Assembly: GCA_012798115.1 (NCBI GenBank)
Contig: JAAZNV010000006.1
Location: forward strand, 19,232-83,231
Source of the DNA: a candidate division WWE3 bacterium
GTDB taxonomy: Bacteria; Patescibacteriota; WWE3; UBA101185; UBA10185
DNA: 64,000 nt
Reading direction: 5' to 3'
Position numbers and translations under genes: made by a program. Each line of letters starts with the position of its first letter. The stretch's first letter is position 1. Shown here one piece after another: positions 2,641-34,994 of the stretch. The notes under the pieces are model-generated. The model was not told the origin of the DNA. It did no database searches and was given only the letters and a program-made list of their open reading frames with translations.

Positions 2641-3354
2641 TTAATTTCCTCCAAATCTTCTTTCTCTCTGCGAGAAATTCTTAACTGCTTCTTCCAGCTG
2701 TTTTACCCCAAAATCTGGGAAGTATGTGTCTGTGAAGTAAAGTTCTGCATAAGCACATTGCCAGGACATAAAACCACTTAGCCTCTTTTCTCCTCCTGTT
2801 CTAATAATCAAGTCTATTTGTGGTAATGAAGCTGTATCCAAGTTCTTTTCTATATTTTCTTGTGTAATTTCCTCTTTGTCTTCTTTCATCTTTTTCATTA
2901 CTCTTAGCAATTCATCATGTCCACCATAGTCAACTCCTATTGCTACTGTAAAATCATTAAAACCCTTAGTAGATTCTTCCACATCTTCAAGGGTTTTTCT
3001 TGTTTCTTCAGGAATTCTATCTTTTCTTCCAAGGTGAATAAACTTTGTTTTCTTTTCTTGGCATTTCTTTTTATACCTTTCAGCAAGCCCCCCAATTAAA
3101 GAAAAAAGATATTTTACTTCTTCTTTAGATCTCTTCCAATTTTCAGTAGAAAAGGCCCATCCTGTGAAGCATAAAATTCCAAGTTCCTTTGCTCTTTCTG
3201 CTAGTTTCTCAAAATTATCTGCTCCTCTTCTATGTCCTTCTAAAGATGGCAACCCTTTTTCCTTAGCCCATCTTCTGTTTCCATCCATTATTATAGCTAC
3301 ATGTTTTGGGACAGATAATATATTTTGAGTATCTTGTGACATAGACAGAGACAA
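2641..3354 (-). CDS. uppS: Undecaprenyl pyrophosphate synthase (isoprenyl transferase).
   Basis: HVAIIMDGNRRWA signature, downstream RTGGEKRLSGF and C-terminal ERRFGG. Confidence 0.9.
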   Translation of the reverse strand: MSLSMSQDTQNILSVPKHVAIIMDGNRRWAKEKGLPSLEGHRRGADNFEKLAERAKELGILCFTGWAFSTENWKRSKEEVKYLFSLIGGLAERYKKKCQEKKTKFIHLGRKDRIPEETRKTLEDVEESTKGFNDFTVAIGVDYGGHDELLRVMKKMKEDKEEITQENIEKNLDTASLPQIDLIIRTGGEKRLSGFMSWQCAYAELYFTDTYFPDFGVKQLEEAVKNFSQRERRFGGN

Positions 3355-5343: not shown

Positions 5344-6117
5344 ATGAGCACTGATACTTTGTTGAATAGCTTTGGGGAAAAGAATAAGGAAGACGTCAGA
5401 AGTTGTTTGCTTAAGCTGCTTCCACATGTCAATATAAATAACTTAATACTGTGTGGTGGCCTTGCTGTAAGGTATCATCTTAGGAGGAGTAACAAGACTT
5501 TTGATTACGGCAGGGAGTTTAATGACTTAGATTTTCTCCTGAAGGATGTAGGTGATTTAAAATCCTCCATCTGCAAAGATTTGATTGTGTATCATTACCA
5601 TGATTACACAAATAAAAAGAAAGAACATGCAGATGATTTTTTCGTGGCTCTTGTTGATAGATCTTCTAAGGTAAAATTAGACATATTTAGTTATGTTCCT
5701 TATACGCCTTTTGACGTTGAGGAAGTCGAGTTTGAGAACGTGAAAATAAAGATTAGGAATCCTGAAGACCAGTTAGCTACTCAGATTCTTGAAAGTGCTG
5801 TTGTTCTTGAAGGTGGAACTATTAATCCAAAGTGGATTGAGAATATCGAGATGTTACTAACGATATCAGATTCTGATAAGGCTAATAAATACTTTCATAG
5901 TAAACATTACTATAATGGAAGAGAAGAAAATCCTTTTACTGAAAATGTGTTGGATGTATACGAAAGAATAAAGAATAAAATAAAAGTTAATCCGGAGGTT
6001 CTTGCAACTAAATCCACCAAAAGAACCCCATACAAGTGTGAGTTATGTGAGAATAAAAATGGATTTACTGTTTCTCCTATGGAAAATGTGTATAAAGTAC
6101 TTGGATATACGGAATAA
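5344..6117 (+). CDS. Hypothetical protein, possibly nucleotidyltransferase-like with a C-terminal CxxC.
   Basis: LILCGGLAV...FNDLDFLL (GG...DxD-like) and YKCELCENKNG; weak. Confidence 0.35.
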   Translation: MSTDTLLNSFGEKNKEDVRSCLLKLLPHVNINNLILCGGLAVRYHLRRSNKTFDYGREFNDLDFLLKDVGDLKSSICKDLIVYHYHDYTNKKKEHADDFFVALVDRSSKVKLDIFSYVPYTPFDVEEVEFENVKIKIRNPEDQLATQILESAVVLEGGTINPKWIENIEMLLTISDSDKANKYFHSKHYYNGREENPFTENVLDVYERIKNKIKVNPEVLATKSTKRTPYKCELCENKNGFTVSPMENVYKVLGYTE

Positions 6118-13385: not shown

Positions 13386-13715
13386 CCTTGTCCACCTCCT
13401 TAAAAAAAGTTCAAGTATTAATAGTTAGTAGAGTAGTAAAAAATGCTGAGAAAGTGCTTAAGCTTTTCTTTATACTTTTAATCTATAAATTCTTTTTCTT
13501 CCTATACCATGGAGAAGGTTAATATATTTTCTAAACTCACAGCCAATACCTTCCCAATTCTATATACACATTACAAAATTTATATCTAGGTACTATTAGA
13601 AAGATATATATATATTAGCTAGATATCTTGATAGAGAACAAAAAGATAATTTACTTTGTAAGTAGCTCTTCTCTAGATTTTTGATCAGGTACATGGGTAG
13701 TTATTGGAACTTTCA

Positions 13716-14231
13716 TCAGCAAGAAAGTATAAGATTTGAAGTTAATATAGCTGGTGCATTCTTTTTATATATTAAATCTTTTCCACCTCCTAGATTGTAC
13801 AGATCTTCCCTTCCAGCTATTTTGTACCTATGCTTAAGAAGAAAGAACTTGATGGCATAATTAACAGATTTGGCATCGCAAAGTATAATTTTTGATTTAA
13901 ACTCCTTTGAGCCTTCTATCTCTGTGTTTCTCAGTAAGAAGCTAGCCAAGTATCTACCTCTAAATTCTGGTCTAACAGTTAGGTTTTTAATTTCAAGAGC
14001 ATCTGAATACGTTTTATGTTTTTGGTAAATAGATACTCCAACAATATTCCCTGAAGATATGGCGATTAATGCTCTTTTACTTTCTTTATGAAGTTCTTTG
14101 TAAGATTTATCAGCCCAATCAAGAAAATCTGGGTAATCTGTATTAGGGATCCATAACCTAGGTCCAAGAATAAAGTTTACAATTTCATCCAGTTTAGAGG
14201 CTGGATACTCATTTGTAAATCTATAATCCAT
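13716..14231 (-). CDS. GNAT-like acetyltransferase (tentative).
   Basis: LEIKNLTVRPEFRGRYLASFLL resembles the GNAT motif A Q/RxxGxG/A-like segment; otherwise unrecognised. Confidence 0.4.
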   Translation of the reverse strand: MDYRFTNEYPASKLDEIVNFILGPRLWIPNTDYPDFLDWADKSYKELHKESKRALIAISSGNIVGVSIYQKHKTYSDALEIKNLTVRPEFRGRYLASFLLRNTEIEGSKEFKSKIILCDAKSVNYAIKFFLLKHRYKIAGREDLYNLGGGKDLIYKKNAPAILTSNLILSC

Positions 14232-14297
14232 AATTAGAAATTATTTTAGCATAAGATATTTAAGATTGATTTATGTTGCTACAAAGACAAGATAATT

Positions 14298-14340
14298 GGC
14301 TGAGCATGCTGGTCAGGAGCGTCTGCGTCTACTTTCCCAG
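14298..14340. repeat. Intergenic repeat copy R1 (GGCTGAGCATGCTGGTCAGG...CTACTTTCCCAG).
   Basis: Shares the GGCTRAGCATGYYGGT core with the copies at 14954 and 15572, and the CTA-TT-CCCAG 3' end with R3. Confidence 0.55.
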
Positions 14341-14910
14341 GTCAGGATAATTTACATCAAATCCTTTTAAATACTCCCCATGAAAAGAACTTTTTATATC
14401 TTCATACTTAATATCTTTGTAATTTTTAAAACTGCCAGAATAATATAAATACAATATTTGCATGAAGAAGCTATGGGTAACACAAAGCATATTATTGTAG
14501 CTGAGACCTTTTAGATATTTATCTAGCTCCTTTATTCTTTCCCAGGTATCTTTTAGAGTACTAAGTTCGGTGCCATCGATGAATCTATTAATTCGTTCCC
14601 CTGGTAAATCTGGATTCCAGGCACATTCCTCTAAAAGTTCACATGTCTCTATTTTTATGTTGAGATTGAATACTTTTTTAACCTCGTTGGCGCTTTCTAA
14701 AGTGCGTTTTGAGGGACTACTTATGATCACATCAAATTGCTTGTATGCATCTAGGTCTAATTCGTTTGTAATGTAGTTTTTAACGTCACTATTTATAGAT
14801 GGATCAATAAGTCCTTTGGATAGGTTTACATATTGCTCATGATCTGTGTTTTCTTTGGAATCAAACGGGTATGCTAATCTGTAATGTCTGATAAATGTAA
14901 CCACTTTCAC
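14329..14910 (-). CDS. Histidine phosphatase superfamily protein (phosphoglycerate mutase-like), tentative.
   Basis: N-terminal VTFIRHYRL (RHG-like) and C-terminal CVTHSFF segment. Confidence 0.45.
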   Translation of the reverse strand: MKVVTFIRHYRLAYPFDSKENTDHEQYVNLSKGLIDPSINSDVKNYITNELDLDAYKQFDVIISSPSKRTLESANEVKKVFNLNIKIETCELLEECAWNPDLPGERINRFIDGTELSTLKDTWERIKELDKYLKGLSYNNMLCVTHSFFMQILYLYYSGSFKNYKDIKYEDIKSSFHGEYLKGFDVNYPDLGK

Positions 14911-14953
14911 ACACGAATTATATTATCCCGTGAGCCCTTTCTCAAGGTTACAT

Positions 14954-14993
14954 GGCTAAGCATGTCGGTTTAGAACGCATGGGACTATTACAC
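14954..14993. repeat. Intergenic repeat copy R2 (GGCTAAGCATGTCGGTTTAGAACGCATGGG...).
   Basis: Aligns to R3 over about 35 nt, with the upstream GTGAGCCCTTTCT / GTGTGCCCATTCT also shared. Confidence 0.55.
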
Positions 14994-15067
14994 AAGAATC
15001 AGATTAATTTTAATGTTTTTCTGTATGCGAGCTTGACATTACATTAAATTATGTGTAGATTGAGGCA

Positions 15068-15427
15068 ATGAATGATGAAGGCTTAAAACAAGAACCAGAT
15101 TTAACCGAAGTCGTGAAAGATCTCTTGGATGCAGGCCATCGGGATGAGGTCGTTTCTGCCATCACCCAATTATATAACCAGTCTGAAGCAGGTATGATAC
15201 CTGGTGACTTTGACTCACTTGTAAGAACAAACCTAGAGAAGGTTGAAAAATCATTAGCTGACAACCCTGATGTAGATCTAAAAGATGAATTTACTGGATT
15301 TGTGGAGGATCTTACACGAGTAGCTGGTATGAACTCTTATCATGGTATAACACCCCCGTCCCATATTATGCAAGAAGCCATTGTGGATATGTTAAAAAAC
15401 ATGGATAAAGGAGAGGTTGTGAGTTAG
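15068..15427 (+). CDS. Acidic hypothetical protein (119 aa), flanked by repeat copies R2 and R3.
   Basis: ORF with locally higher GC than its neighbours; no motif recognised. Confidence 0.4.
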   Translation: MNDEGLKQEPDLTEVVKDLLDAGHRDEVVSAITQLYNQSEAGMIPGDFDSLVRTNLEKVEKSLADNPDVDLKDEFTGFVEDLTRVAGMNSYHGITPPSHIMQEAIVDMLKNMDKGEVVS

Positions 15428-15571
15428 TTTTCATCTGTCTTTACGCCTGTTTACGTGTATTATTTTCCATGTGTCATCGCTCTAATCATAGGTAGTTTAG
15501 GTTCGATCAAGGAGTATCTACTAGCCTTGAAAGAGTATTTGAGGCTTCGTGATCACTTGTGTGCCCATTCT

Positions 15572-15624
15572 GGCTGAGCATGTCGGTCTAACACCCATTT
15601 CATTCTCTAGGCTCTAATTCCCAG
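15572..15624. repeat. Intergenic repeat copy R3 (GGCTGAGCATGTCGGTCTAACACCC...CTAATTCCCAG).
   Basis: Third copy of the family; overlaps the last codons of the convergent gene. Confidence 0.55.
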
Positions 15625-16063
15625 ATAATTGAGCATACTTGTCTAGAGCCCTTAATCGTTTTAGTTCTTTTCTCACTTTACTTTTGAGAGTTTGGTATCT
15701 TTCAAGAATTTTATACTCACAAGCACTCTTTGAATTTAGAATCTCATCTTTTGTTTTATACTCATATATATTAAATTTTGTAGGTTTTTTAAACTGACAT
15801 CTGCTGAAATCTTGATTCGTTCCATCTGGAAGTACATTCCAAACATGAAAGTTATTTTTATCGTAAGCTAGTTTCCCCCCAAATAAGTCATACACAATTA
15901 AAGCAGTGGGTACACATTGTCCCAAGGCTTTGTCAACTCTAGTCCATTTATTAGCTAAATTGGGAAATACTGTATTGTTTGACCATGTGTCTTTAAATAT
16001 AGATTCGAGCTCATCAAATTGTTCTTTAGAAAGAAGATTTGAGTTTTGATATAAGTTCAACAT
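15614..16063 (-). CDS. Hypothetical protein (149 aa), co-operonic with the UDG-like gene.
   Basis: 7-nt overlap with the upstream ORF; no motif recognised. Confidence 0.4.
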   Translation of the reverse strand: MLNLYQNSNLLSKEQFDELESIFKDTWSNNTVFPNLANKWTRVDKALGQCVPTALIVYDLFGGKLAYDKNNFHVWNVLPDGTNQDFSRCQFKKPTKFNIYEYKTKDEILNSKSACEYKILERYQTLKSKVRKELKRLRALDKYAQLSGN

Positions 16064-16617
16064 AAGAGGTCTCTCAGTTGCTTAGCTAATTTATTAAATA
16101 TTTCTATGTTTTTCTGATGATTATATGGCCCAATTGGTGAGGGATGATATATAGGAAGGAATTGATACATACTTTCGGACAGAGATGCCTCAGTAATGAC
16201 TCCTATTTCCAAGTTTAAGTTGGAATTTTTATTGAATATTTCCAAAGTTTTTACGCCTAATAAAATAATAAATCTGATATTATTTGCTTTTAGTTGTTTT
16301 AGGAAGATAGGCCAACACTTAGATCCACAAACATCCAGTTGCTTCCGTTTTTTATCTACATAGCATTTGACCAATTCTGTAAATGAACAGTCATCAATGT
16401 TTAGTTGATAGGGTTCGAATAATTTATTTAAATTTTTACCAGTGGGCAAAAGCTTTCCGTTTATCGTATAGAATGCTTTACCAGATTTTCTCCAACCATT
16501 AGGTGCAGGAGATTCCCCAACTAAGAGAATATGCTTTCCTCTGGTGTTACCTAACTTGAAAAACTTTGTTATTGGGTAAGTGTCCGTATTTTCACAGTAA
16601 TGTTCTTGTTCATCCAT
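16057..16617 (-). CDS. Uracil-DNA glycosylase superfamily protein (family 4/5-like), tentative.
   Basis: LLVGESPAPNGW (GE[GS]PG-like motif A) and IYHPSPIGPYN (HPSP motif B), with several Cys. Confidence 0.5.
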   Translation of the reverse strand: MDEQEHYCENTDTYPITKFFKLGNTRGKHILLVGESPAPNGWRKSGKAFYTINGKLLPTGKNLNKLFEPYQLNIDDCSFTELVKCYVDKKRKQLDVCGSKCWPIFLKQLKANNIRFIILLGVKTLEIFNKNSNLNLEIGVITEASLSESMYQFLPIYHPSPIGPYNHQKNIEIFNKLAKQLRDLLC

Positions 16618-16709
16618 ACGCCAATTATATATGATTATATATTATGGAACTTATAGTGGCTGATTGATTTAATAACAATCCTATCCATATGAGTACTCTC
16701 CGGGCTACT

Positions 16710-16783
16710 TGGCTGGGGGACAGGGACTTGAACCCCAATTATTGCATCCAGAGTGCAACGTCCTACCATTAGACGATCCCCCA
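16710..16783 (-). tRNA. tRNA-Gln (anticodon CUG).
   Basis: Manual cloverleaf: U1-A72 acceptor stem (as in bacterial tRNA-Gln), D arm TCGTCTAATGGTAGGAC, anticodon loop CTCTGGA, T arm with TTCAAGT loop, encoded CCA. Confidence 0.8.
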
Positions 16784-16833
16784 ACGTTTATTTGATTTTA
16801 CCATTTATACACTATTGCTGATAAAATATTTAT

Positions 16834-17040
16834 ATGGATAAAAAGATAAAGAAAATAAAAATAAATGAAGATATATGTATTGGTTGTGGAGCTTGTGGAA
16901 TAACTGCCCCAGAAGCTTTTGGTTATGATAATGAAAGAGCTAAAGCAACCGTTAAAGAAGGAGCAGAAGATACAGATAATGAAAAGATAAAAGAAGCTGT
17001 AAGAAGATGTCCTGTACAAGCTATAAGTATTGAAGAGTAG
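16834..17040 (+). CDS. Small 4Fe-4S ferredoxin.
   Basis: CIGCGACGITAPEAF ... RRCPVQAI (CxxCxxC...CP single-cluster ferredoxin pattern), 68 aa. Confidence 0.75.
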   Translation: MDKKIKKIKINEDICIGCGACGITAPEAFGYDNERAKATVKEGAEDTDNEKIKEAVRRCPVQAISIEE

Positions 17041-17162
17041 ATTGGTTGTTTAGTGTATAACCTCAAAGAATAAAGAAAATAAGAAGGGGTAACATTTATT
17101 AAAAGCTACAAGCAAGTCGCGTTCAACAGAAAGCCACCTAAGTTGATAGATGGCTTTTGTGG

Positions 17163-17624
17163 TTAAAGTAAAAATAAACCTTCGGTGAATTTTTTGGCTA
17201 TTCTCAAGAGTTCATTTATCATTGGGCCTTTTAAACAATCAATTGAAATGACTTTATAAATCCATTGCTCTATGGATAAGCTTTCTCGTCCTCTTTCAGC
17301 TGGCGTCTCCCAATTTCTAAAGATGTATTTGATATGCTCTGCATTAGCACGGACGAAGATGTCCCCTTTCTCTATTTCAACACGATGAGAGAAAGGTCCA
17401 TGAGAACTTATTGTGGAAAATGCAAACACTGTGAGAAGTTCAATTCCTTCAAAGCTTTTAACGTCCTTTAAAAAAGCAATGGGTTTGCTCGGCGTGATTA
17501 ATTCCCACCTAGTATCGGCCCCATCCTTCTTAAGGTATAAATGTCCAGCCTCTAGAGACACAACTTCTTCTTCCATTTTTAACTCCTTTTTATTTAGAAT
17601 GTTGCTATTTAACAAAATAACCAT
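17163..17624 (-). CDS. Hypothetical protein (start possibly the internal MEEEVV at about 17576).
   Basis: ORF only; no motif recognised. Confidence 0.35.
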   Translation of the reverse strand: MVILLNSNILNKKELKMEEEVVSLEAGHLYLKKDGADTRWELITPSKPIAFLKDVKSFEGIELLTVFAFSTISSHGPFSHRVEIEKGDIFVRANAEHIKYIFRNWETPAERGRESLSIEQWIYKVISIDCLKGPMINELLRIAKKFTEGLFLL

Positions 17625-17703
17625 ACATAAGTCAAATGGTGTTTAAAATTACAGTATTTGTGTACTTTGTTAGTTATGTAGTTTAGGATACAATTTACTT
17701 ACT

Positions 17704-20540: not shown

Positions 20541-20615
20541 GGCCCCATCGTCTAATGGTTAGGACGTCAGGTTCTCAGCCTGTAAATCCGGGTTCGACTC
20601 CCGGTGGGGTCACCA
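20541..20615 (+). tRNA. tRNA-Glu (anticodon CUC).
   Basis: Manual cloverleaf: acceptor GGCCCCA/TGGGGTC, D arm TCGTCTAATGGTTAGGAC, anticodon loop TTCTCAG, T arm CCGGG-TTCGACT-CCCGG, encoded CCA. Confidence 0.8.
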
Positions 20616-20705
20616 CTCATGCCCTGTAGTATTTGACCTCCTCATAATATTATAATATAATAAGGCTATTAATCCGTTCAAATATTGAAAGGAAGGAGCT
20701 TAAAA

Positions 20706-21047
20706 ATGGCAGATTTATATGTTGGTTTAGGGGGGATCCTCGGAGCAATCTTGCTTGCTGCACTGGCCGTTCGCCAGCTTGGTGATTTCAACTACGACCA
20801 CCCGGAGATGAAGAAAGGTGAAGTTTTTATCACCAATGCTGATGCGGAAGACCTGCACCATGTGGGGTGGAAAACCAAACGATGTGGGAAGAAAGCATAT
20901 GATGCCCATGGCAGGTGCATTTCGGAATCTTATTGGCAAGGATCATTCCCTGTATTTGTTCAGAAATCCGAGATGATTCAAGCTGGTTTTAGGATTTTCC
21001 AGATTCGCTTTCTCTGCATTCAGATTCTTGACTCCCACAAAAGATAA
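20706..21047 (+). CDS. Small membrane protein with a His/Cys-rich soluble domain, in a GC-elevated islet 3' of tRNA-Glu.
   Basis: Strong RBS (GGAAGGAG, 7 nt upstream of ATG 20706), N-terminal TM (LYVGLGGILGAILLAALAV), DLHHVGWKTKRCGKKAYDAHGRC, and a terminator directly downstream. Confidence 0.4.
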   Translation: MADLYVGLGGILGAILLAALAVRQLGDFNYDHPEMKKGEVFITNADAEDLHHVGWKTKRCGKKAYDAHGRCISESYWQGSFPVFVQKSEMIQAGFRIFQIRFLCIQILDSHKR

Positions 21048-21056
21048 CCATTGAAA

Positions 21057-21091
21057 AACTTCTCTTGTTAAAAGCAACGAGAAGTTTTTTA
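21057..21091 (+). terminator. Rho-independent terminator (stem ACTTCTC..GAGAAGT, then TTTTTT).
   Basis: Hairpin plus U-tract seen directly in the sequence, immediately after the 20706-21047 ORF. Confidence 0.5.
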
Positions 21092-21298
21092 TTCCTCAAA
21101 GTAATCAAGTGAATTACCTGAGATTTCTAGTAAATGTACTGTAGTATCATGTGCCAACTTCTAAACATTGATGTAATTTCCGACAGGCGATCCCAAACTG
21201 GTTCTTGTGGGGGCTACCAATTGGTATTCATCAGGTGAGGATTATAATTTAGCGAGTTTCACATTGTTGATATTTTTTAATGATTATACAATGACTAT

Positions 21299-21850
21299 AT
21301 GCAAGCAATAGAATTACTAGGGGAAACTCAAAAATCTTTCGAGGCACAATTATCCCCCGAGAAACAAGAGAATATAAGGGCTATAACAGCTCATGAAGGT
21401 GCTCATGCTTTTGTTTCCCTAAAATTAGGTATCCCACTTATGAAGATCGAAATGAGTATAGAAAACGATAAGCAGGCAGGGAGAATTGTTTGGAATGACT
21501 TGAAAGGTATTACAACTGAGATGAGGGGAATTTCGTATGCAGCTGGATTAGCAGGTGAATTGGTCGTATTGGGCGAGGATTATGTAAGGAACAATGGTTT
21601 CAAAGGAGTAAGAACTGATTCTAAAAGACTTAACCAGCTTGGTTACATATCACAAGAAGATAAGGCAAGGTTACTAACAGAAGCCTTAGATGTTCTTATT
21701 AGTAACAAGGATGATTTTGAGAAATTTCGCGCCACCTTAGAGAGAGAATTAATAAAAGCCTCAAGAAAAGGCACTGATAGAATACTTTTAGACAGGGATA
21801 GATTAACAGAATTAGGAATACAAAAACCAGAGAAAGAGGCACTACATTAA
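21299..21850 (+). CDS. Standalone FtsH-like M41 zinc-metallopeptidase domain protein (no AAA ATPase).
   Basis: ITAHEGAHAF (HExxH) followed by ISYAAGLAGELVVLGEDY, which parallels the FtsH protease-domain TAYHEAGHA ... LGGRAAEE..FG; only 183 aa. Confidence 0.55.
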   Translation: MQAIELLGETQKSFEAQLSPEKQENIRAITAHEGAHAFVSLKLGIPLMKIEMSIENDKQAGRIVWNDLKGITTEMRGISYAAGLAGELVVLGEDYVRNNGFKGVRTDSKRLNQLGYISQEDKARLLTEALDVLISNKDDFEKFRATLERELIKASRKGTDRILLDRDRLTELGIQKPEKEALH

Positions 21851-26838: not shown

Positions 26839-26866
26839 GCCACAGTTTTCCTGTGGCTTTTTATAA
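26839..26866 (+). terminator. Second terminator-like hairpin GCCACAG-ttttc-CTGTGGC followed by TTTTT, ending 5 nt before ATG 26871.
   Basis: Seen in the sequence; argues the real start is ATG 26871 rather than the track GTG at 26853. Confidence 0.35.
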
Positions 26867-26870
26867 ATTT

Positions 26871-29800
26871 ATGAAAAAAATAAAAATAAAGATCCACAGT
26901 GAAAAACTGTTTTCGTATGTTGCTATGTTTTCTATGGTTGCAAATGTGTTATCTCCATTTGCAGCTGTGCTTCCTTCCACTGCTTATGCAGAAGGTTCTT
27001 CTACTACAGAAACTACTCAGCAAGTAGAGGAAGAATCTAAAGAAGAAGTTAAACCTGAGGAAGAAGCCCCTGCAGAAGAACCAGAAGGAACGGTAGAACA
27101 AATAGAAGAGCAGAGTACTGAAAAAGAAAGCACCGAAGAAACCCAAGAACCTGTACAAGAAGAAACTGCTGAGCCAAAAGTTTCAGTAGAGTCTTCAAAT
27201 GAAATACCAGAAGGTAAATTTACAATAGATTCAGTAGAGAGTCCTATAACAGAACCTGAAGTCGTAGAAGTTATAACTCCTGCTGAACCGGTAGTTGAAG
27301 AACCAGCAATGGTAGAAGAACAGACAGGAGATATACTTCCTGATGGAGTCTCTGACTACAGACCAGAGATAGAGATTGAAGAAGGTGAAGCTACAGAGGT
27401 TCAGGAAGTTGTAGATCCTGTTTCAACAGAAACTAGTAGTACAGAGCCGGAAGTAGTTATTACAGAGCCTAGTGAAACTGAACCAGCAGTAACTGTTGAA
27501 CCAATTACTCCAACTGAAACTGGAGAAACTCCTAAAGAAGTAATTAAAGAATATGAGACGTTAGCAGATGGAGCAGAAGTAAAAGATAGTACAAAAGAAG
27601 ATTGGGATATTGATGGGGAAAAAGCTGAAACGAGGGAAGTAGTTAAACTTGGTATTAAATATATTTTCCCTATAGATAGTGAGGATAATGAAGTTAGTGT
27701 TACATTTACTAAACTTCCAAAATTAAGTGAAGATAAATCTACTTTAATAATAGAAAGAGTAAAAGTATCAGATCTTGATTTACCTGAAGATTTTAAAACT
27801 GATGCAGAATATGCATTTGATATTACTACTCCAGATATGAATGATGGAGAATTTGAATATAATTTAACTCTTCCTAAACCTGAAGGTGTGGACGCAGAAG
27901 TTGCATATATAGAAAAATCAATAAATGAGGCTAAAGATGAAGTTAAGAGTGAAGATGTAAAAAAGGTTGAAGAAGATAAAATTGATCAGGACGGCGGAAG
28001 CATAAAAGTAGAAAGTTTAGATCACTTGACCTTATTTATTCCTCTTGGTGGTGTAGTTCTTAGTGTATCTGGTAGTTTTGATGGCGCAACACAGGTTACT
28101 GTGGAACCTGGGACTGCTATTGAAGTTGATATTACAGTAGAGCGTAGTGATGGTTGGGATTGGTGGAGTAATGATGTTGAAAATGATTGGAAAGCTACTT
28201 CTTGGAAAATAAATGATGGCTCTTGGAATTGTGAGAATCACAGTGATCATACATGGGGTAATGGGACAGACACAGGTTCCTTCAATATTACAGCTCCTCT
28301 GGCAGAAGGTACGTACGACGTCAGTTTCAGGGCACATAGAAGTAATTCATGCGAAGACACTGGTGTTAGTAATACATTTACGTTAACAAATGGAATTAAG
28401 GTTGAAAGTTACTCTGCTCCAAGTCCAACACTTCATTATAATGTTAACGATGATTATGTTTTAACATCTGTTTCAGGAGTCTGGACAGATGTAAATGGTG
28501 GTAGTGAAGTAACTGGCGAGGGAACTAATGAAGTTAGGTGGGGACGTAGCGCAGAATATGGCAAGAAGAGTGGATTAAGATTTGATGGCAGTGATCAACA
28601 AAGTTTTAATGAAGGAAGTAGTTTTTATCTTGGAGCATTAACGCACTTTAACTGGCCAATTACCAATGCTTCACGTGGAGCCACTCTTAAGATCACTTTG
28701 CATTTTTCTAAACCTGGTATAAGTCCAGATCCAGATTTTAGTTATGACTTTAATATAGAAGAAACTTCTAACAGCTATGGTCATTGTCTTTCTTGGCAGC
28801 AAAGTTCAACTCCTTGTGATGACAAGATAACATTTCCATCTAGTTATGGTGAAAAGAGTTTTACAATAGGAGATAAACTTTATACTCTAAAAATATTAGG
28901 ATTTGTTAACTCCTATCCAGGAGGTTCTCCTGTTTCTCAGTTTATTACAGAAGAACAAAAGAATAACACAGCTTATTTAGTTGGTACCCTTTCATCTGTT
29001 CTTGTTCCTGCTCCTCAAATAACCCTAGTTGAGAAAGCAATTAATGGTAATGATGCTGATTCGTCTCCTGGAGATAGCTTATATGTTGGAGATGCAGTAA
29101 CATTTACCTATCAAGTTCAAAATACAGGTAATGTTGATTTAACTAATATAGTTATTCATGATAACGACTCAAGTTTATCTGTTACTTGTCCTTCTACGTC
29201 TTTAACTTCTGGGTCTTCTATGACCTGTACAGCAACAAGTACCGTTAAGCTAGGGAATTATCACAATACTGCTTATGTAACAGCAAAGCATGGTTCTCAG
29301 TCTTTAAGGAGTAGTGATGAAGAAGGATATTATGTTGGTGTAAATAGAATAATTTGTGGCGATGGTATAAAAGATGTTTCGGAAGCATGTGATAACGGTC
29401 CTGATAATGGAGATGTTTGTACGGCTCCTTATGATGGGGATTGTAATTATTGTGGTGTAAGTTGTGAGATTATAACAGTGAGAGGGCCCTACTGTGGAGA
29501 TGGAACTAAGAATGGGTCGTCAGAACAGTGTGATGGTCTAGACTTGGGTAATCTACCATCTTCAGATTTTTCTTGTACTAAAAAATGTGAACTTAATTTA
29601 ATTCAAGATAAAGTAACTATTTGTCATGCTGACGCTTCTGGACATAAACCATATACCATCAATAAGCCAAATAAATCTGCTGATGTAAATGGACACGATG
29701 GGCATAATGGACCTATTTGGTTCCTAGGTATAACAGGCGATTGGGGAGATATAATTCCTCCATTTTATTACGTTGGGGGTTATTACGTCGGAAAAAACTG

Positions 29801-32800
29801 GACGCCTGAAGGTGAAGCAATTTGGAGGAACGGTTGTGATGTTCCACCATACTGTGGTGATGGGGTTATAAATCAGCCTACAGAACAATGTGATGATGCT
29901 AACTCTGTAAATAATGATGGGTGTAGTGCCACGTGCCAGCTTGAAACTGGAACAATTACAATTATTAAGGATGCACAACCTGATGATAGTCAAACATTTA
30001 ACTTTACATATGAGAGTAATCCTTATGCTATCGGTAATTTCAGCTTAACAGATAATGGAGGTGGCAATGAAAAGATAAGTTTTGCGTCTATTCCAATAGG
30101 GTCATACTCTTGGACTGAGGATCTAGTTACAGATTGGCGCTTGGATAGCATTGCATGTGATGATAGCAATAGCGTTGGGGACTTATCAGCAAGAAGAGTT
30201 GATGTTGTGTTAGATGCTAATGAACATGTAACTTGCATCTTTACTAATGTGTTGAAGACTGGGACAATCTCAGGAGTCAAATTTGAAGACATAAACGGCA
30301 ATCGTGTCCAGGACAGTAATGAACATGGACTATCTGGTTGGACAATATATATTGATAGCAATAAGAATAATCAATTGGATGCTGGTGAACCTACTCAGGT
30401 TACTGATGTAAATGGAAACTTTGTTTTCAATGGCTTAACTCCTGGAAAATACTGGGTGAAGGAAATTAATCAAACTGGTTGGAGTCAAACAGTGCCAGCA
30501 GGGCTATACCAGGAAGTTGATCTGAAAGCTGATGAAAATGAGTCTATATATTTTGGAAATCAAAGGAATCCAGTAACTATAAATGCATATAAAGTAGTTT
30601 GTGATAATGAGTCTTACTTACCAAATTATGGTATTGGTGGACCAGACATTACTTCTACAACAGCACAAGATTGGGTAAGTAACAGCAATGGACATTGTAA
30701 GCTTGAACCTAACTGGAAGTTCCAGTGGAGTTTTGATGGTGTAGATAATCCTGGAGATAATATAACCAGTGAAGCAGGAACAGGTTGGAATACTTTTGGT
30801 CCAACTGATGGTGATGGTTTTGCACAAGTTAAGATCTATCAGCTTGATACGCCTAAGCTTTGGTTTAGAGAAGTACTTCAAGATGGTTATATTCCATTTA
30901 CATATGGAGCACACCCCGATAATTCAGATAATGTAAGTGCTGAGTTTTACTGCAATGATGATGTTTTTAACTACGATAACTGGGAATGGATAGATAACCC
31001 GCAATACGGAAATACTTACTACTGTGTTGCATGGAACACACTAAAGAAGGGATCTTTAGAAGTAACAAAGACTGTAAACTGGACAGAAATTATTCCTGAT
31101 GTGTCAAAGACTTTTGAAGTATGTATAACAGGTCCTTCTTACACATCTGGAAACTGCAAGACGATAGATTATGATGGTGGAACTTTAACGTGGAATGATT
31201 TATTGCTGGGTGATTACACAATAACAGAATCTGATCTTGGTGCACATTGGTCAGTTGTTGGTTCTGGATCTGTAGTTTCAGTATCTGATTCCTCTACGAC
31301 ACATCAAATAACTAATACATACATCCCATACTGTGGCGATGGAGTTAAGAATGGAGCAGAGCAATGTGATGGGAGAAGTGGAGTTAATGAAGATATGGAG
31401 TTTTGTACTAGCCAGTGTAAGCTAGTTCCAGTTTACGATGGTAATCATGAGTGTCCAAAAGGAACAATTGAAAAATATATTACCGGAATTACTTTAGGTA
31501 GCCAAAGTAGTTCTTTGCAAACACTTAATTTATCAGGTGGGAGATCTTATCTTCTAAAAGCTTTTGGAACTTACCAATATGGTAGTGGTTCTACAAGAAA
31601 AGCTGACCCAGCTTATGGATCTGAGGATAATTTTGCTACCTGGAGACCTGATATAGGAATTTGGGGTGTAAACAACAGAGGTGTTACTTCAATTCTAGGA
31701 AATCTAGGACGTGGGATGGGTGTAATTGAATGGGATAACGATAAAAATATTGATGAAGATCACATTTATGAAAAGTTAATTAAGCCTGAAAGTGACTTGG
31801 AAGCAAAGTTTGTTATTAGCGACTGGTACAGCAATTGGTATGGAAACAGCTGTGATAATCAAGGTTGTATGACTGATAATAATGGCTCGTTGAATGTAGA
31901 TTTGTATGAATGTGTTGAACCAAGTTCAATTCAAGGAAAGAAATTCAAAGATGTTAATGGCAATGGGATAAGAGACAGTGGTGATACGTACCTTGATGGT
32001 TGGACAGTAAATCTGTATCAACAAAAAGAAGGGTGGAGTTTAGTAAAAAGCATGATAACAGGCAATGATTTAACTGAAGCTGGATCAGTAGATCAAGGTC
32101 AATACAGATTTGTTAATCTTCTTCCTGGAAAGTATTTAGTTTGTGAGGAACTTAAGTCTGGTTGGGTGCAAACAGCACCAGTTGAAGGGACTTCTTATAA
32201 CGGTACTACTTGTTACGAAATAGACCTAGCAGCTGGAAAAAGTGAGGTTGGAAAAGTGTTTGGTAACTTTGAATTAGGAAAAGTTCAAGGTATGAAGTTT
32301 AATGATCTAGATGGGGATGGAAACTCACATGAAACTGGTGAAGAATATTTAAATGGTTGGACAATTAGATTATATAAAGATTGGGCAGAACCAGTTGAAG
32401 TTATAACTTCAAATACAGGAACTTTAGGGCAATATAAATTCGAGAATTTAAAGCCAGGAACTTATCAGGTTTGTGAGGTTTTACAACAAGGATGGGTACA
32501 GACATGGCCAAGTGCTGGGGATATTCCAGTTGGAGACAATGGAGTTACACACCCCAACTATGGAACTGCTGTTATTAATTCATCTAGTGCTTTAGATGAG
32601 GGTGCAAATTGCTGGCAAACAGTAGTTTCCGCATCGGGTCAATTCAATCAGCTGTTAAGGTTTGGGAACTCAAATCTTGGATCAATTCATGGTATGAAGT
32701 ATATAGATACTTCTGGTGATGGGAACTTTGATAGCGGAACCGATTGGGGTGCTTCTGGTTGGACAATAAATTTGTATAAACTAGTTAATAGCACGTATGT

Positions 32801-34994
32801 TCTTGCAAGTTCGGTATCAACTGATTCAAATGGATATTATTCATTTGCAAATCTCGAGCAAGGAACATACAAGTTGGAAGAAGTTCAACAATCTGGTTAT
32901 CAAATTATAAATCCATCTGCAGGAATTTATGAAGGAATTATTTTAAATCCTGGAGATAATTTAACGAATTATAACTTTGGTAATTTCCAGAACGGGAGTG
33001 TGTACGGTTGCAAGTACAACGACTTAGACGGTGATGGTGTTAGAAATAGAGAAATTGAACCTCAAATGGCAGGTGTAACAATGAACTTATATGATTCTTC
33101 ATGGAATTTAGTAGCATCAACAGCTACATCTGAAGGCTCTGGATATGGTAATAATTACTCGTTTAGTAATCTTCTTGGAAAGGGTACTTATTACGTTTGT
33201 GAAGTAATGTGGAAAGGTTGGGCACAAACTGAACCTAACGCGGAAAATGGTGTACTAAATGTATCACCAAATGCAGAAAATGAAGGTTCTTACTGCAGAA
33301 AGATAGAAAATAACTACTCTGGTGGTGGTTATGCAAGTCAAAGGTTTGGTAATGTTTTTGTAAATCCAAAACTTCAAATCTCAAAGAGTAATGATGCATC
33401 TTCTGCAAAGAAGATTGGAGATATTGTTACATTTACCATAAAGGTAAAAGTATTAGACTTCAAGCTTGATAATGTAACAGTTCTAGATCTTCTTCCAAAA
33501 GGATTCATATTCCAAGATGAGGATTGGGGAGTAACCTCCAGCAACCCATTGTTTAGTTTCACAGGAGATCCTCATTATGCCTCTCCTGGGACATGGAAGT
33601 TAGGGAGTCTACAGAAAGATGAAGAAGTTACTATTACATATGAGGCTAAAGTTGGATCAGATGTAGACCCTGGTGTTTATAAAGATTTGGCTTGGACTTC
33701 TGGGGATGATATTTTAGGTAGTAATGTCTTAGGCTTGGCTCAAGATGGTAAGGTAAATGATTATTTTGTAGGTACAGAAGTTGAAGTAACAAAGGACAAG
33801 GATTCTACTAAAGATACAGTTGATGTGAAAGAAACAGAAGAAGAGGAAGAGAAAGAAGAAGTGTTGGGTGCTTCTGATGTAAGATTACCTGCTACAGGAG
33901 CTAGCACAGCTATACTAGATGTAGTTTTAATAGCTGGTTTAGTGGGAGCCTTACTTATGATAATTGGAGGTATAGGAAAAATGTTAAAAGCTAAAAAGAA
34001 AAAGGATAAAAACTCAAGACTTAAAAAAGCGTTGTTAACAATGCTTATGTTAAGTTTTAGTTTGATACTTACTAGTAAAGTGTATGCAGAGTCAGACTCT
34101 AAACTAGTTGCTAGAATAGAAGATCCTAAATCTCCTGCTATATCATCGTTCAGCTTAAGCTTTGTTGTTCTTGATGCAAATGAAACACCAAGAAGTATTG
34201 AAGCTCAATGCTGGAAGAAAGGCCCGCTTGATTTAGACTTTGTTAAGTTTGCAGATCCTAGCGTTGATGGTGTGGGTGGAAACACAAATAATTGTTTGGT
34301 TGATAATTCAGTATTAACAAAATCAGGGACATATGTGTTTAAAGTTAAGGTTAAGGCTGATAGCGGTGATTGGCAAGATTCAATAAACACAGCCGCTGTT
34401 GTGTTTGATAATGATGGACCTGATAAACCGAAATATATAGAAAAAGATAAGAAGTCTGATTGCAAATATGAGATAACGCTAAAAACAGCAGATGATGATC
34501 AAACATCTTATATAGAAGTGTATAAAGATGATGATAAAGAAATGAATCTTCATTCTGGTAACTTGATTAAGACTAAGACAATAGGACCTGATGAAAAATA
34601 TGAATTTACGTATGAAGTTTATAGCAGTGATTGTGCAAAAACATGGTATTTTGCTGTAATTGCATTTGATGATTCTGGTAATGCATCGGATCCTAGAGCT
34701 GAAGAAGTAGTTACAAAGGTTACAGTAACAAAAACTACTAAAACGGAAGAAGTGCTTGGGGCGCTTGAAGTTCCTGGTGGAGCAAACCTTTCGCAGGAAG
34801 GTGAAGGAGCAAACAAGGAAGTACCTACTAAGACTAGTGAAGAATCAAAAGGTGCAGTTCTTGGAGAAAAAACTCAAGAACAAGGATTTGTGCTAAGGGT
34901 AGTTAAGTCTTTATGGTTTTGGTTAATAATTGTTCTTCTTGTGTATATCATTGTACGTGTTGTTAAAAAGAAACAAAATAAAAAGAAAAGGTAA
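26871..34994 (+). CDS. Giant modular cell-surface protein (about 2707 aa) with an internal LPATG sorting signal and an in-frame C-terminal module.
   Basis: Signal peptide, acidic E/T/P-rich spacer, at least three CGDG...CDDGN Myxococcus-type Cys-rich repeats, five SdrD-B/Cna-B-like repeats (GxKFxDxNGNG...GWTIxLY...PGxYxVxE), a DUF11-like repeat, then LPATG, TM and KAKKKKDK tail. Confidence 0.85.
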   Translation: MKKIKIKIHSEKLFSYVAMFSMVANVLSPFAAVLPSTAYAEGSSTTETTQQVEEESKEEVKPEEEAPAEEPEGTVEQIEEQSTEKESTEETQEPVQEETAEPKVSVESSNEIPEGKFTIDSVESPITEPEVVEVITPAEPVVEEPAMVEEQTGDILPDGVSDYRPEIEIEEGEATEVQEVVDPVSTETSSTEPEVVITEPSETEPAVTVEPITPTETGETPKEVIKEYETLADGAEVKDSTKEDWDIDGEKAETREVVKLGIKYIFPIDSEDNEVSVTFTKLPKLSEDKSTLIIERVKVSDLDLPEDFKTDAEYAFDITTPDMNDGEFEYNLTLPKPEGVDAEVAYIEKSINEAKDEVKSEDVKKVEEDKIDQDGGSIKVESLDHLTLFIPLGGVVLSVSGSFDGATQVTVEPGTAIEVDITVERSDGWDWWSNDVENDWKATSWKINDGSWNCENHSDHTWGNGTDTGSFNITAPLAEGTYDVSFRAHRSNSCEDTGVSNTFTLTNGIKVESYSAPSPTLHYNVNDDYVLTSVSGVWTDVNGGSEVTGEGTNEVRWGRSAEYGKKSGLRFDGSDQQSFNEGSSFYLGALTHFNWPITNASRGATLKITLHFSKPGISPDPDFSYDFNIEETSNSYGHCLSWQQSSTPCDDKITFPSSYGEKSFTIGDKLYTLKILGFVNSYPGGSPVSQFITEEQKNNTAYLVGTLSSVLVPAPQITLVEKAINGNDADSSPGDSLYVGDAVTFTYQVQNTGNVDLTNIVIHDNDSSLSVTCPSTSLTSGSSMTCTATSTVKLGNYHNTAYVTAKHGSQSLRSSDEEGYYVGVNRIICGDGIKDVSEACDNGPDNGDVCTAPYDGDCNYCGVSCEIITVRGPYCGDGTKNGSSEQCDGLDLGNLPSSDFSCTKKCELNLIQDKVTICHADASGHKPYTINKPNKSADVNGHDGHNGPIWFLGITGDWGDIIPPFYYVGGYYVGKNWTPEGEAIWRNGCDVPPYCGDGVINQPTEQCDDANSVNNDGCSATCQLETGTITIIKDAQPDDSQTFNFTYESNPYAIGNFSLTDNGGGNEKISFASIPIGSYSWTEDLVTDWRLDSIACDDSNSVGDLSARRVDVVLDANEHVTCIFTNVLKTGTISGVKFEDINGNRVQDSNEHGLSGWTIYIDSNKNNQLDAGEPTQVTDVNGNFVFNGLTPGKYWVKEINQTGWSQTVPAGLYQEVDLKADENESIYFGNQRNPVTINAYKVVCDNESYLPNYGIGGPDITSTTAQDWVSNSNGHCKLEPNWKFQWSFDGVDNPGDNITSEAGTGWNTFGPTDGDGFAQVKIYQLDTPKLWFREVLQDGYIPFTYGAHPDNSDNVSAEFYCNDDVFNYDNWEWIDNPQYGNTYYCVAWNTLKKGSLEVTKTVNWTEIIPDVSKTFEVCITGPSYTSGNCKTIDYDGGTLTWNDLLLGDYTITESDLGAHWSVVGSGSVVSVSDSSTTHQITNTYIPYCGDGVKNGAEQCDGRSGVNEDMEFCTSQCKLVPVYDGNHECPKGTIEKYITGITLGSQSSSLQTLNLSGGRSYLLKAFGTYQYGSGSTRKADPAYGSEDNFATWRPDIGIWGVNNRGVTSILGNLGRGMGVIEWDNDKNIDEDHIYEKLIKPESDLEAKFVISDWYSNWYGNSCDNQGCMTDNNGSLNVDLYECVEPSSIQGKKFKDVNGNGIRDSGDTYLDGWTVNLYQQKEGWSLVKSMITGNDLTEAGSVDQGQYRFVNLLPGKYLVCEELKSGWVQTAPVEGTSYNGTTCYEIDLAAGKSEVGKVFGNFELGKVQGMKFNDLDGDGNSHETGEEYLNGWTIRLYKDWAEPVEVITSNTGTLGQYKFENLKPGTYQVCEVLQQGWVQTWPSAGDIPVGDNGVTHPNYGTAVINSSSALDEGANCWQTVVSASGQFNQLLRFGNSNLGSIHGMKYIDTSGDGNFDSGTDWGASGWTINLYKLVNSTYVLASSVSTDSNGYYSFANLEQGTYKLEEVQQSGYQIINPSAGIYEGIILNPGDNLTNYNFGNFQNGSVYGCKYNDLDGDGVRNREIEPQMAGVTMNLYDSSWNLVASTATSEGSGYGNNYSFSNLLGKGTYYVCEVMWKGWAQTEPNAENGVLNVSPNAENEGSYCRKIENNYSGGGYASQRFGNVFVNPKLQISKSNDASSAKKIGDIVTFTIKVKVLDFKLDNVTVLDLLPKGFIFQDEDWGVTSSNPLFSFTGDPHYASPGTWKLGSLQKDEEVTITYEAKVGSDVDPGVYKDLAWTSGDDILGSNVLGLAQDGKVNDYFVGTEVEVTKDKDSTKDTVDVKETEEEEEKEEVLGASDVRLPATGASTAILDVVLIAGLVGALLMIIGGIGKMLKAKKKKDKNSRLKKALLTMLMLSFSLILTSKVYAESDSKLVARIEDPKSPAISSFSLSFVVLDANETPRSIEAQCWKKGPLDLDFVKFADPSVDGVGGNTNNCLVDNSVLTKSGTYVFKVKVKADSGDWQDSINTAAVVFDNDGPDKPKYIEKDKKSDCKYEITLKTADDDQTSYIEVYKDDDKEMNLHSGNLIKTKTIGPDEKYEFTYEVYSSDCAKTWYFAVIAFDDSGNASDPRAEEVVTKVTVTKTTKTEEVLGALEVPGGANLSQEGEGANKEVPTKTSEESKGAVLGEKTQEQGFVLRVVKSLWFWLIIVLLVYIIVRVVKKKQNKKKR
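30258..33240 (+). repeat. Region encoding five divergent SdrD-B-like (Cna-B type) beta-sandwich repeats, interleaved with other domains, inside the giant CDS.
   Basis: Repeating protein pattern (I/V)xG(V/M)K(F/Y)xDxNG(N/D)G...GL(S/D)GWT(I/V)xLY...GxYxFxNLxPGxYxVxE...GWxQTxP, seen five times. Confidence 0.6.
33885..33899 (+). other. LPATG sortase recognition motif codons (followed by a hydrophobic segment 33900-33980 and a basic tail), internal to the giant ORF.
   Basis: TTA CCT GCT ACA GGA read directly; downstream ASTAILDVVLIAGLVGALLMIIGGIG then KMLKAKKKKDK. Confidence 0.75.

Follow-up and report, generated by a model that had tools for sequence, protein, structure and literature searches.

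We propose, with a probability of about 60%, that a gene in DNA of a candidate division WWE3 bacterium (contig JAAZNV010000006.1; the 64,000 nucleotides analysed here are called the window) encodes a minimal cytoplasmic single-domain zinc metallopeptidase. This peptidase would be homologous, though highly diverged, to the C-terminal FtsH protease domain (MEROPS peptidase family M41), with neither an AAA+ unfoldase nor a membrane anchor. We demonstrate a conserved open reading frame (ORF) with a predicted fold matching FtsH protease domains, a HExxH motif and a Glu (E87) that align with their FtsH counterparts, and no conserved neighbouring gene. Coordinates are collected in Table 1.

The 183-residue protein is identical to NMB91356.1, from a candidate division WWE3 bacterium of the candidate phyla radiation (CPR)/Patescibacteria, and to UniRef100_A0A7X9HSD5, which carries the automatic UniRef name 'Peptidase M41 domain-containing protein'. 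Its HEGAHA motif occupies residues 32–37 and the segment ISYAAGLAGELVVLGEDY residues 78–95. The protein contains no hydrophobic segment (maximum Kyte-Doolittle mean over 19 residues of 1.02; isoelectric point 6.0) and neither a P-loop nor an AAA+ module, with zero matches to AAA Pfam models. The HExxH begins only 31 residues past the start codon, too close for an AAA+ module to fit in front of it. The N-terminal transmembrane anchor and AAA+ module of FtsH proper are likewise missing from the upstream DNA, where a terminator and a small gene separate from this one lie instead. The initial annotation, made from the letters of the window and its ORF list, had described a soluble 183-residue protein with HEGAHA that stands alone without an AAA ATPase, and both points are borne out by the ORF list, the codons and the searches above. 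The window as a whole is low in GC (33.7%).

We searched 1.84 billion cluster representatives exhaustively with HMMER and obtained only 21 proteins at E ≤ 1e-3, or about 19 clusters after the removal of false positives. P0018 and P0024 were excluded as tandem-repeat false positives. The relatives are 122–197-residue single-domain proteins or fragments, and every member is single-domain. Against the 68% identical orthologue at locus L001, the window gene shows a non-synonymous divergence (dN) of 0.20 and a saturated synonymous divergence (dS), so that dN/dS is not quantifiable. Because several lineages carry the gene, and given a dN of 0.20 with saturated dS, we regard it as real and constrained.

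We predicted the structure using AlphaFold2. With the 6 closest sequences, the predicted local distance difference test (pLDDT) was 84 and the predicted template modelling score (pTM) 0.80, but two of its five models were of low quality. Extending the alignment to 21 sequences brought every one of the five models to pLDDT 88–90 and pTM 0.84, with the same topology as in the 6-sequence prediction. The model consists of a helix (20–42), a hairpin (47–65), two further helices (73–99 and 102–113), a helix pair (119–135 and 137–156), a strand (161–165) and a last helix (166–171). In a Foldseek comparison with the PDB, ranks 1–44 were all taken by FtsH, AFG3L2, YME1, FtsHi or 5iqj, at probabilities of 0.85–1.00 (nearly all 1.00). 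The sequence identity to FtsH is 13–19%. The AlphaFold2 models thus have the three-dimensional fold of the FtsH protease domain.

Profile–profile comparison points the same way. As reference for hhalign we used an aligned pair of FtsH sequences taken from the PDB alignments, E. coli 7vhp_A (residues 380–604) and T. maritima 2ce7_A (residues 244–456). The 21-sequence family profile matched this pair with a probability of 88.6% (E 2.6e-6), pairing HEGAH with HEAGH of FtsH and 'ISYAAGLAGELVVLGEDYV' with 'ISTLYGGRLAEEIIYGPEHV'. In the same alignment E87 falls on E476 of the E. coli protein, a residue formerly numbered E479. HMMER with its filters off also aligned the HExxH to FtsH HEAGH, and added a weak collinear match of the C-terminal helix. 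On the basis of the models and profiles, we conclude that the protein is probably genuinely, if very remotely, homologous to the M41 protease domain along its whole length.

The conservation pattern centres on the presumed active site. Of the 18 relatives in which the site is covered, 17 keep the HExxH. The motif by itself is weak evidence, since another ORF in the window, 100 or more residues long, has one as well. Across the 21 sequences, with pairwise identities down to 22%, D107, G83 and G115 are invariant, and conservation reaches 90% or more at A82, A85 and E87. D107 is the sole invariant polar residue of the family and lies within G103-x-x-x-D107-S108. In the 2006 crystal structures of FtsH the third zinc ligand is the Asp of 'G-A-x-N-D' (E. 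coli D492, or D495 in the older numbering), about 16 residues past 'LAEE' and at the beginning of the helix that follows the 'GGRxAEE' helix. MAFFT sets D107 on this same D492. From sequence comparison, we infer that D107 is the likely third zinc ligand and the counterpart of the Asp in FtsH 'G-A-x-N-D'. The initial annotation had placed the third-ligand region at the 'LAGEL' segment. That segment does match FtsH 'LAEE', but the ligand itself is probably D107 further downstream.

Several results weigh against an M41 assignment. The window protein has zero matches at E ≤ 10 in Pfam, PF01434 included, and zero matches in NCBIfam. Scanned singly, the 21 family members gave two matches to PF01434 at E ~1, the better one with E 0.97 and a score of 9.7 bits, below the cutoff of 29.9. 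Searching the PDB sequences with profiles and with single sequences gave nothing significant, with FtsH at E ~1.4 on the HExxH helix. The best sequence-HMM (hidden Markov model) match is to PF13398 (Peptidase_M50B), found in 13 of the 21 members with a best E of 8.2e-7. The mapping of D107 onto the FtsH Asp comes from MAFFT and secondary-structure logic, and a low-confidence extension of the hhalign alignment pairs the D107 segment with a different FtsH segment. This alternative register would match a predicted helix to a loop and a strand of FtsH and leave the invariant Asp unexplained, and for this reason we favour D107 as the ligand. Finally, the relative P0008 (190 residues) has HKVGH in place of the HExxH, while the second His, E87 and D107 are kept. 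P0008 may be a catalytically dead derivative and, given its HKxxH, catalysis would not be retained throughout the family.

The PF13398 matches could mean that this soluble protein branched off from the M50/M50B (site-2 protease-like) metalloproteases instead of M41. One member, P0013, scores 29.4 bits and is the only one above the 26-bit gathering cutoff, PF02163 (M50) matches six of the 21 members, and the top match of the PDB profile search is the MJ0392 site-2 protease (E 0.23), again on the HExxH helix. The M50B and M50 matches span only about 55 N-terminal residues (profile positions ~21–81 of 201), which correspond to the HExxH helix and the following strands or hairpin. Neither a HExxH within a transmembrane helix of a polytopic membrane protein nor a full-length match to the Pfam M50B/M50 models was found. 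We conclude that the similarity to M50B is only that of the common HExxH-helix and strand module, and regard descent from the M50 peptidases as unlikely. The claim of a bona fide M41 catalytic domain in the initial annotation is supported by fold and profile–profile comparison but not by the PF01434 HMM. This shows that the curated M41 HMM overlooks such divergent single-domain relatives, which are hence under-counted.

The protein could also be a non-proteolytic or trans-acting module that docks on an FtsH ring or on another AAA+ unfoldase, as a pseudo-protease, an adaptor or a detachable protease subunit. The C-terminal helices of the domain are kept, the catalytic Glu is lost in P0008, FtsHi pseudo-proteases rank among the best structural matches, and isolated FtsH protease domains self-assemble into hexamers (reviewed in PMC9020784). 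However, the HExxH and D107 are otherwise strictly retained, which favours catalysis. No AAA+ gene recurs as a neighbour, and an identity to FtsH of just 13–19% makes conservation of the interface doubtful. We give this explanation a low probability.

For the favoured single-domain M41-like peptidase, we infer metal content, zinc triad geometry, catalytic activity, oligomeric state and substrates as follows. Zinc would be held by H32 and H36 from helix 20–42 and by D107 at the start of helix 102–113, with E33 as the general base. E87, on helix 73–99, would buttress the site like the equivalent Glu of FtsH. The hairpin 47–65 would offer an edge strand to bind an extended substrate, and the C-terminal helices (119–171) would be equivalent to the helical portion of the domain in FtsH. 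With no motor there would be no unfolding, so that ATP-independent cleavage would be limited to peptides, disordered tails or already unfolded proteins. The protein might also form a ring, like FtsH protease domains in isolation. Taken further, the family could represent a free-living FtsH-type module, either a self-assembled, ATP-independent and self-compartmentalised ring or a protease recruited in trans by a separate AAA+ unfoldase, although we hold this to be a rather small chance.

Set beside known systems, the protein is best described as a known protease fold in a divergent, AAA-less form, and not as FtsH proper. FtsH, YME1 and AFG3L2 exceed 600 residues, whereas the window protein is far shorter and has neither AAA+ module nor transmembrane anchor. 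Relative to FtsH, it has a shorter lid segment before the second helix and a deletion of about 25–30 residues behind the third-ligand helix, which takes in some of the helix itself and the hairpin after it. FtsH is universal, while the window family is sporadic. PDB 5iqj, a 131-residue Vibrio cholerae protein of unknown function, is a structural match at 13–16% identity but is about 50 residues shorter, and the PDB-sequence searches detected no sequence relationship to it. Foldseek against viral models placed M41 proteins on top, the first being a 214-residue stand-alone phage protein. Tailed-phage stand-alone M41 proteins such as A0A6J5RJ76 (214 residues, BFVD) are single-domain and similar in size to the window protein (Foldseek E 4.6e-4, probability 1.00, TM-score (query) 0.60), at an identity of 14%. 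The chloroplast FtsHi and Ycf2 proteins keep the AAA+ module and have lost the HExxH (PMC9020784), and the window protein is the opposite case, with the HExxH kept and the AAA+ module missing. Towards the Pfam Peptidase_M50B and site-2 proteases, the similarity is local.

AAA-less M41 domains are unusual and the window family is very rare. FtsH-type proteases are fused motor-plus-protease machines. A conserved 20-kDa protein with just the protease fold and its catalytic residues raises the questions of what an M41 active site is capable of when no unfoldase serves it and how the cell is protected from damage. The M41 label was already present as an automatic UniRef name, and other stand-alone M41-like proteins exist (the phage proteins and 5iqj). 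Our literature searches found nothing relevant on stand-alone M41 domains and no publication on 5iqj, and we found no functional context for the window family. If active, the protein would be the smallest M41-like peptidase and a handy model of the protease chamber, and would give the very reduced CPR bacteria an extra, accessory means of proteolysis. Were the family indeed a free-living module, it would be a 'split' or detachable version of an otherwise always-fused AAA+ protease, and a minimal system for the working and gating of the M41 chamber without a motor.

The gene is an accessory one, sporadic in CPR bacteria (WWE3 and Saccharibacteria). Named sources are WWE3, an unclassified 'bacterium' and one Saccharibacteria metagenome-assembled genome (MAG), and the placeable members are all CPR. 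A scan of GTDB representative genomes found a single locus, in a Saccharibacteria MAG. A pattern scan of IMG/VR and tblastn of INPHARED phages and PLSDB plasmids gave zero family homologues, and scans of all 21 members with PHROGs and PADLOC returned only scattered chance-level matches. Because no homologue was found in IMG/VR, INPHARED or PHROGs, we consider the window family a lineage separate from the phage M41 proteins.

The window gene has no Shine-Dalgarno sequence, and the TACAAT hexamer at 21287–21292 ends 6 nt ahead of its ATG. The same arrangement, a -10-like hexamer (TACAAT or TATAAT) 6–8 nt ahead of the start codon in the absence of a Shine-Dalgarno sequence, was found in the window (21287–21298) and at L001 (~3160–3172), L017 (~2694–2707) and L011 (~5988–6000). 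This pattern suggests that the mRNAs of the family may be leaderless or near-leaderless, with a very short leader.

Table 1 Features of the window around the M41-like gene, and gene contexts at related loci.
Feature	Position	Strand	Description and basis
Coding sequence	21299..21850	+	Stand-alone M41-like (FtsH-protease-domain-like) putative zinc metallopeptidase; 183 aa, ATG start, stop codon included; ORF list
H32-E33-G34-A35-H36 codons	21392..21406	+	Zincin HExxH, two predicted zinc ligands and predicted catalytic Glu, helix 20–42; sequence, conservation, hhalign
A82-G83-L84-A85-G86-E87 codons	21542..21559	+	On helix 73–99, counterpart of FtsH 'GGRxAEE'; conservation and hhalign columns
D107 codon	21617..21619	+	Invariant Asp in the first turns of helix 102–113, after conserved G103; candidate third zinc ligand; 21/21 sequences, MAFFT
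Putative promoter region	21221..21292	+	TTGGTA-16-TATAAT at 21221–21248 and -10-like TACAAT at 21287–21292; consensus scan, consensus matches only
tRNA-Glu	20541–20615		Upstream of small ORF; ~0.7 kb from protease gene
Small ORF	20706..21047	+	113-aa single-pass membrane protein (one transmembrane helix)
Intrinsic terminator of small ORF	21052–21091		dG (folding free energy) -16.8 kcal/mol, z -5.6
L001 (68% identical orthologue)			Divergent 83-aa gene, large serine recombinase and PLD operon; syntenic 433-aa gene, lysS beyond
L011–L015			HIT, HD, 49-aa gene, rve_3 integrase
L016			Between frr and rseP-like M50+PDZ gene
L017			Unknown genes, tRNA-Ser
L018 / L021			Between glycosyltransferase and 5'-3' exonuclease

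The gene contexts of the relatives are unlike one another, and an all-against-all BLAST of the neighbours at six loci found nothing in common except the protease itself and one syntenic 433/440-residue gene. The protease gene is typically monocistronic, with a divergent gene upstream and a convergent gene downstream. In the window it is transcribed alone, and the 440-residue gene downstream is convergent. L016, a metagenomic contig, is the sole operon-like context among the loci. There (positions 3–2080) frr, for ribosome recycling factor, ends at 443 and the M41-like gene starts at 444, with an rseP-type M50+PDZ site-2 protease beyond.

A regulatory protease of mobile elements, which like ImmA/IrrE would cleave a repressor to switch on an integrated element, would suit some of these contexts. 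At L001 (631–3139) the orthologue lies 34 bp from a divergent operon for an 83-residue protein, a 579-residue large serine recombinase and a PLD-family nuclease, with an XRE-type helix-turn-helix (HTH) gene 2.7 kb off; the contigs break about 3 kb on. At L011–L015 the gene and an rve_3 integrase share a block, the outer flanks of which vary among contigs, and in the window it is near tRNA-Glu. However, the gene is present at the element-free orthologous site in the window, and the comparison suggests an integrated element beside the gene in the L001 strain that is absent from the window. The M78 (ImmA/IrrE) model gave zero matches in the 21 members at E ≤ 10, and no adjacent HTH gene was found in the window or at L011, L016, L017 and L018. 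We judge such a role improbable.

The initial annotation had also suggested that the protease and the small membrane protein encoded upstream may form a toxin/antitoxin-like or regulatory pair; on this reading the small protein would be the specific substrate or inhibitor of the protease. The two genes do share a strand, with a 251-bp gap between them, and the small protein has its transmembrane helix. However, a promoter-like site (TTGACC-17-TATAAT, 11/12 matches) and a strong Shine-Dalgarno sequence belong to the small ORF alone, and a strong terminator separates it from the protease gene. In a tblastn search of all loci, the small ORF turned up solely in the same-strain contigs L007–L010 and beside no other family member. 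Its GC of 0.42–0.44 is unlike its surroundings (window mean 0.337) and suggests a separate origin, and with PADLOC returning nothing and the neighbourhood survey showing no conserved partner gene, we consider the pair very improbable.

The small transcription unit (20619–21147) follows directly after tRNA-Glu and lies within an imperfect 14-nt direct repeat, ATGCCCTGTAGTAT at 20619–20632, which starts 4 nt past the tRNA 3' end, and ATGTACTGTAGTAT at 21134–21147. It may be the remnant of a tRNA-targeted insertion, although a two-copy 14-mer is also possible by chance.

Elsewhere in the window, a strain-variable region (13562–17657) surrounds tRNA-Gln (16710–16783). The same-species contigs L007–L010 are 98.5% identical to the window outside this region. 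They lack window positions 14303–16708, which encode a histidine phosphatase, a 119-residue ORF, a YunG-like protein and a UDG-superfamily glycosylase, as well as 17053–17657, and carry instead a 318-residue HMUDK_hel (5-hydroxymethyldeoxyuridine (5-hmdU) DNA kinase-like) gene and a tRNA_bind gene. Further on (26853–34994) lies a giant ORF of 2713 residues, for which the same-species contigs annotate SdrD_B, SpaA_4 and CLIPPER-type repeats, and its product is probably a surface adhesin.
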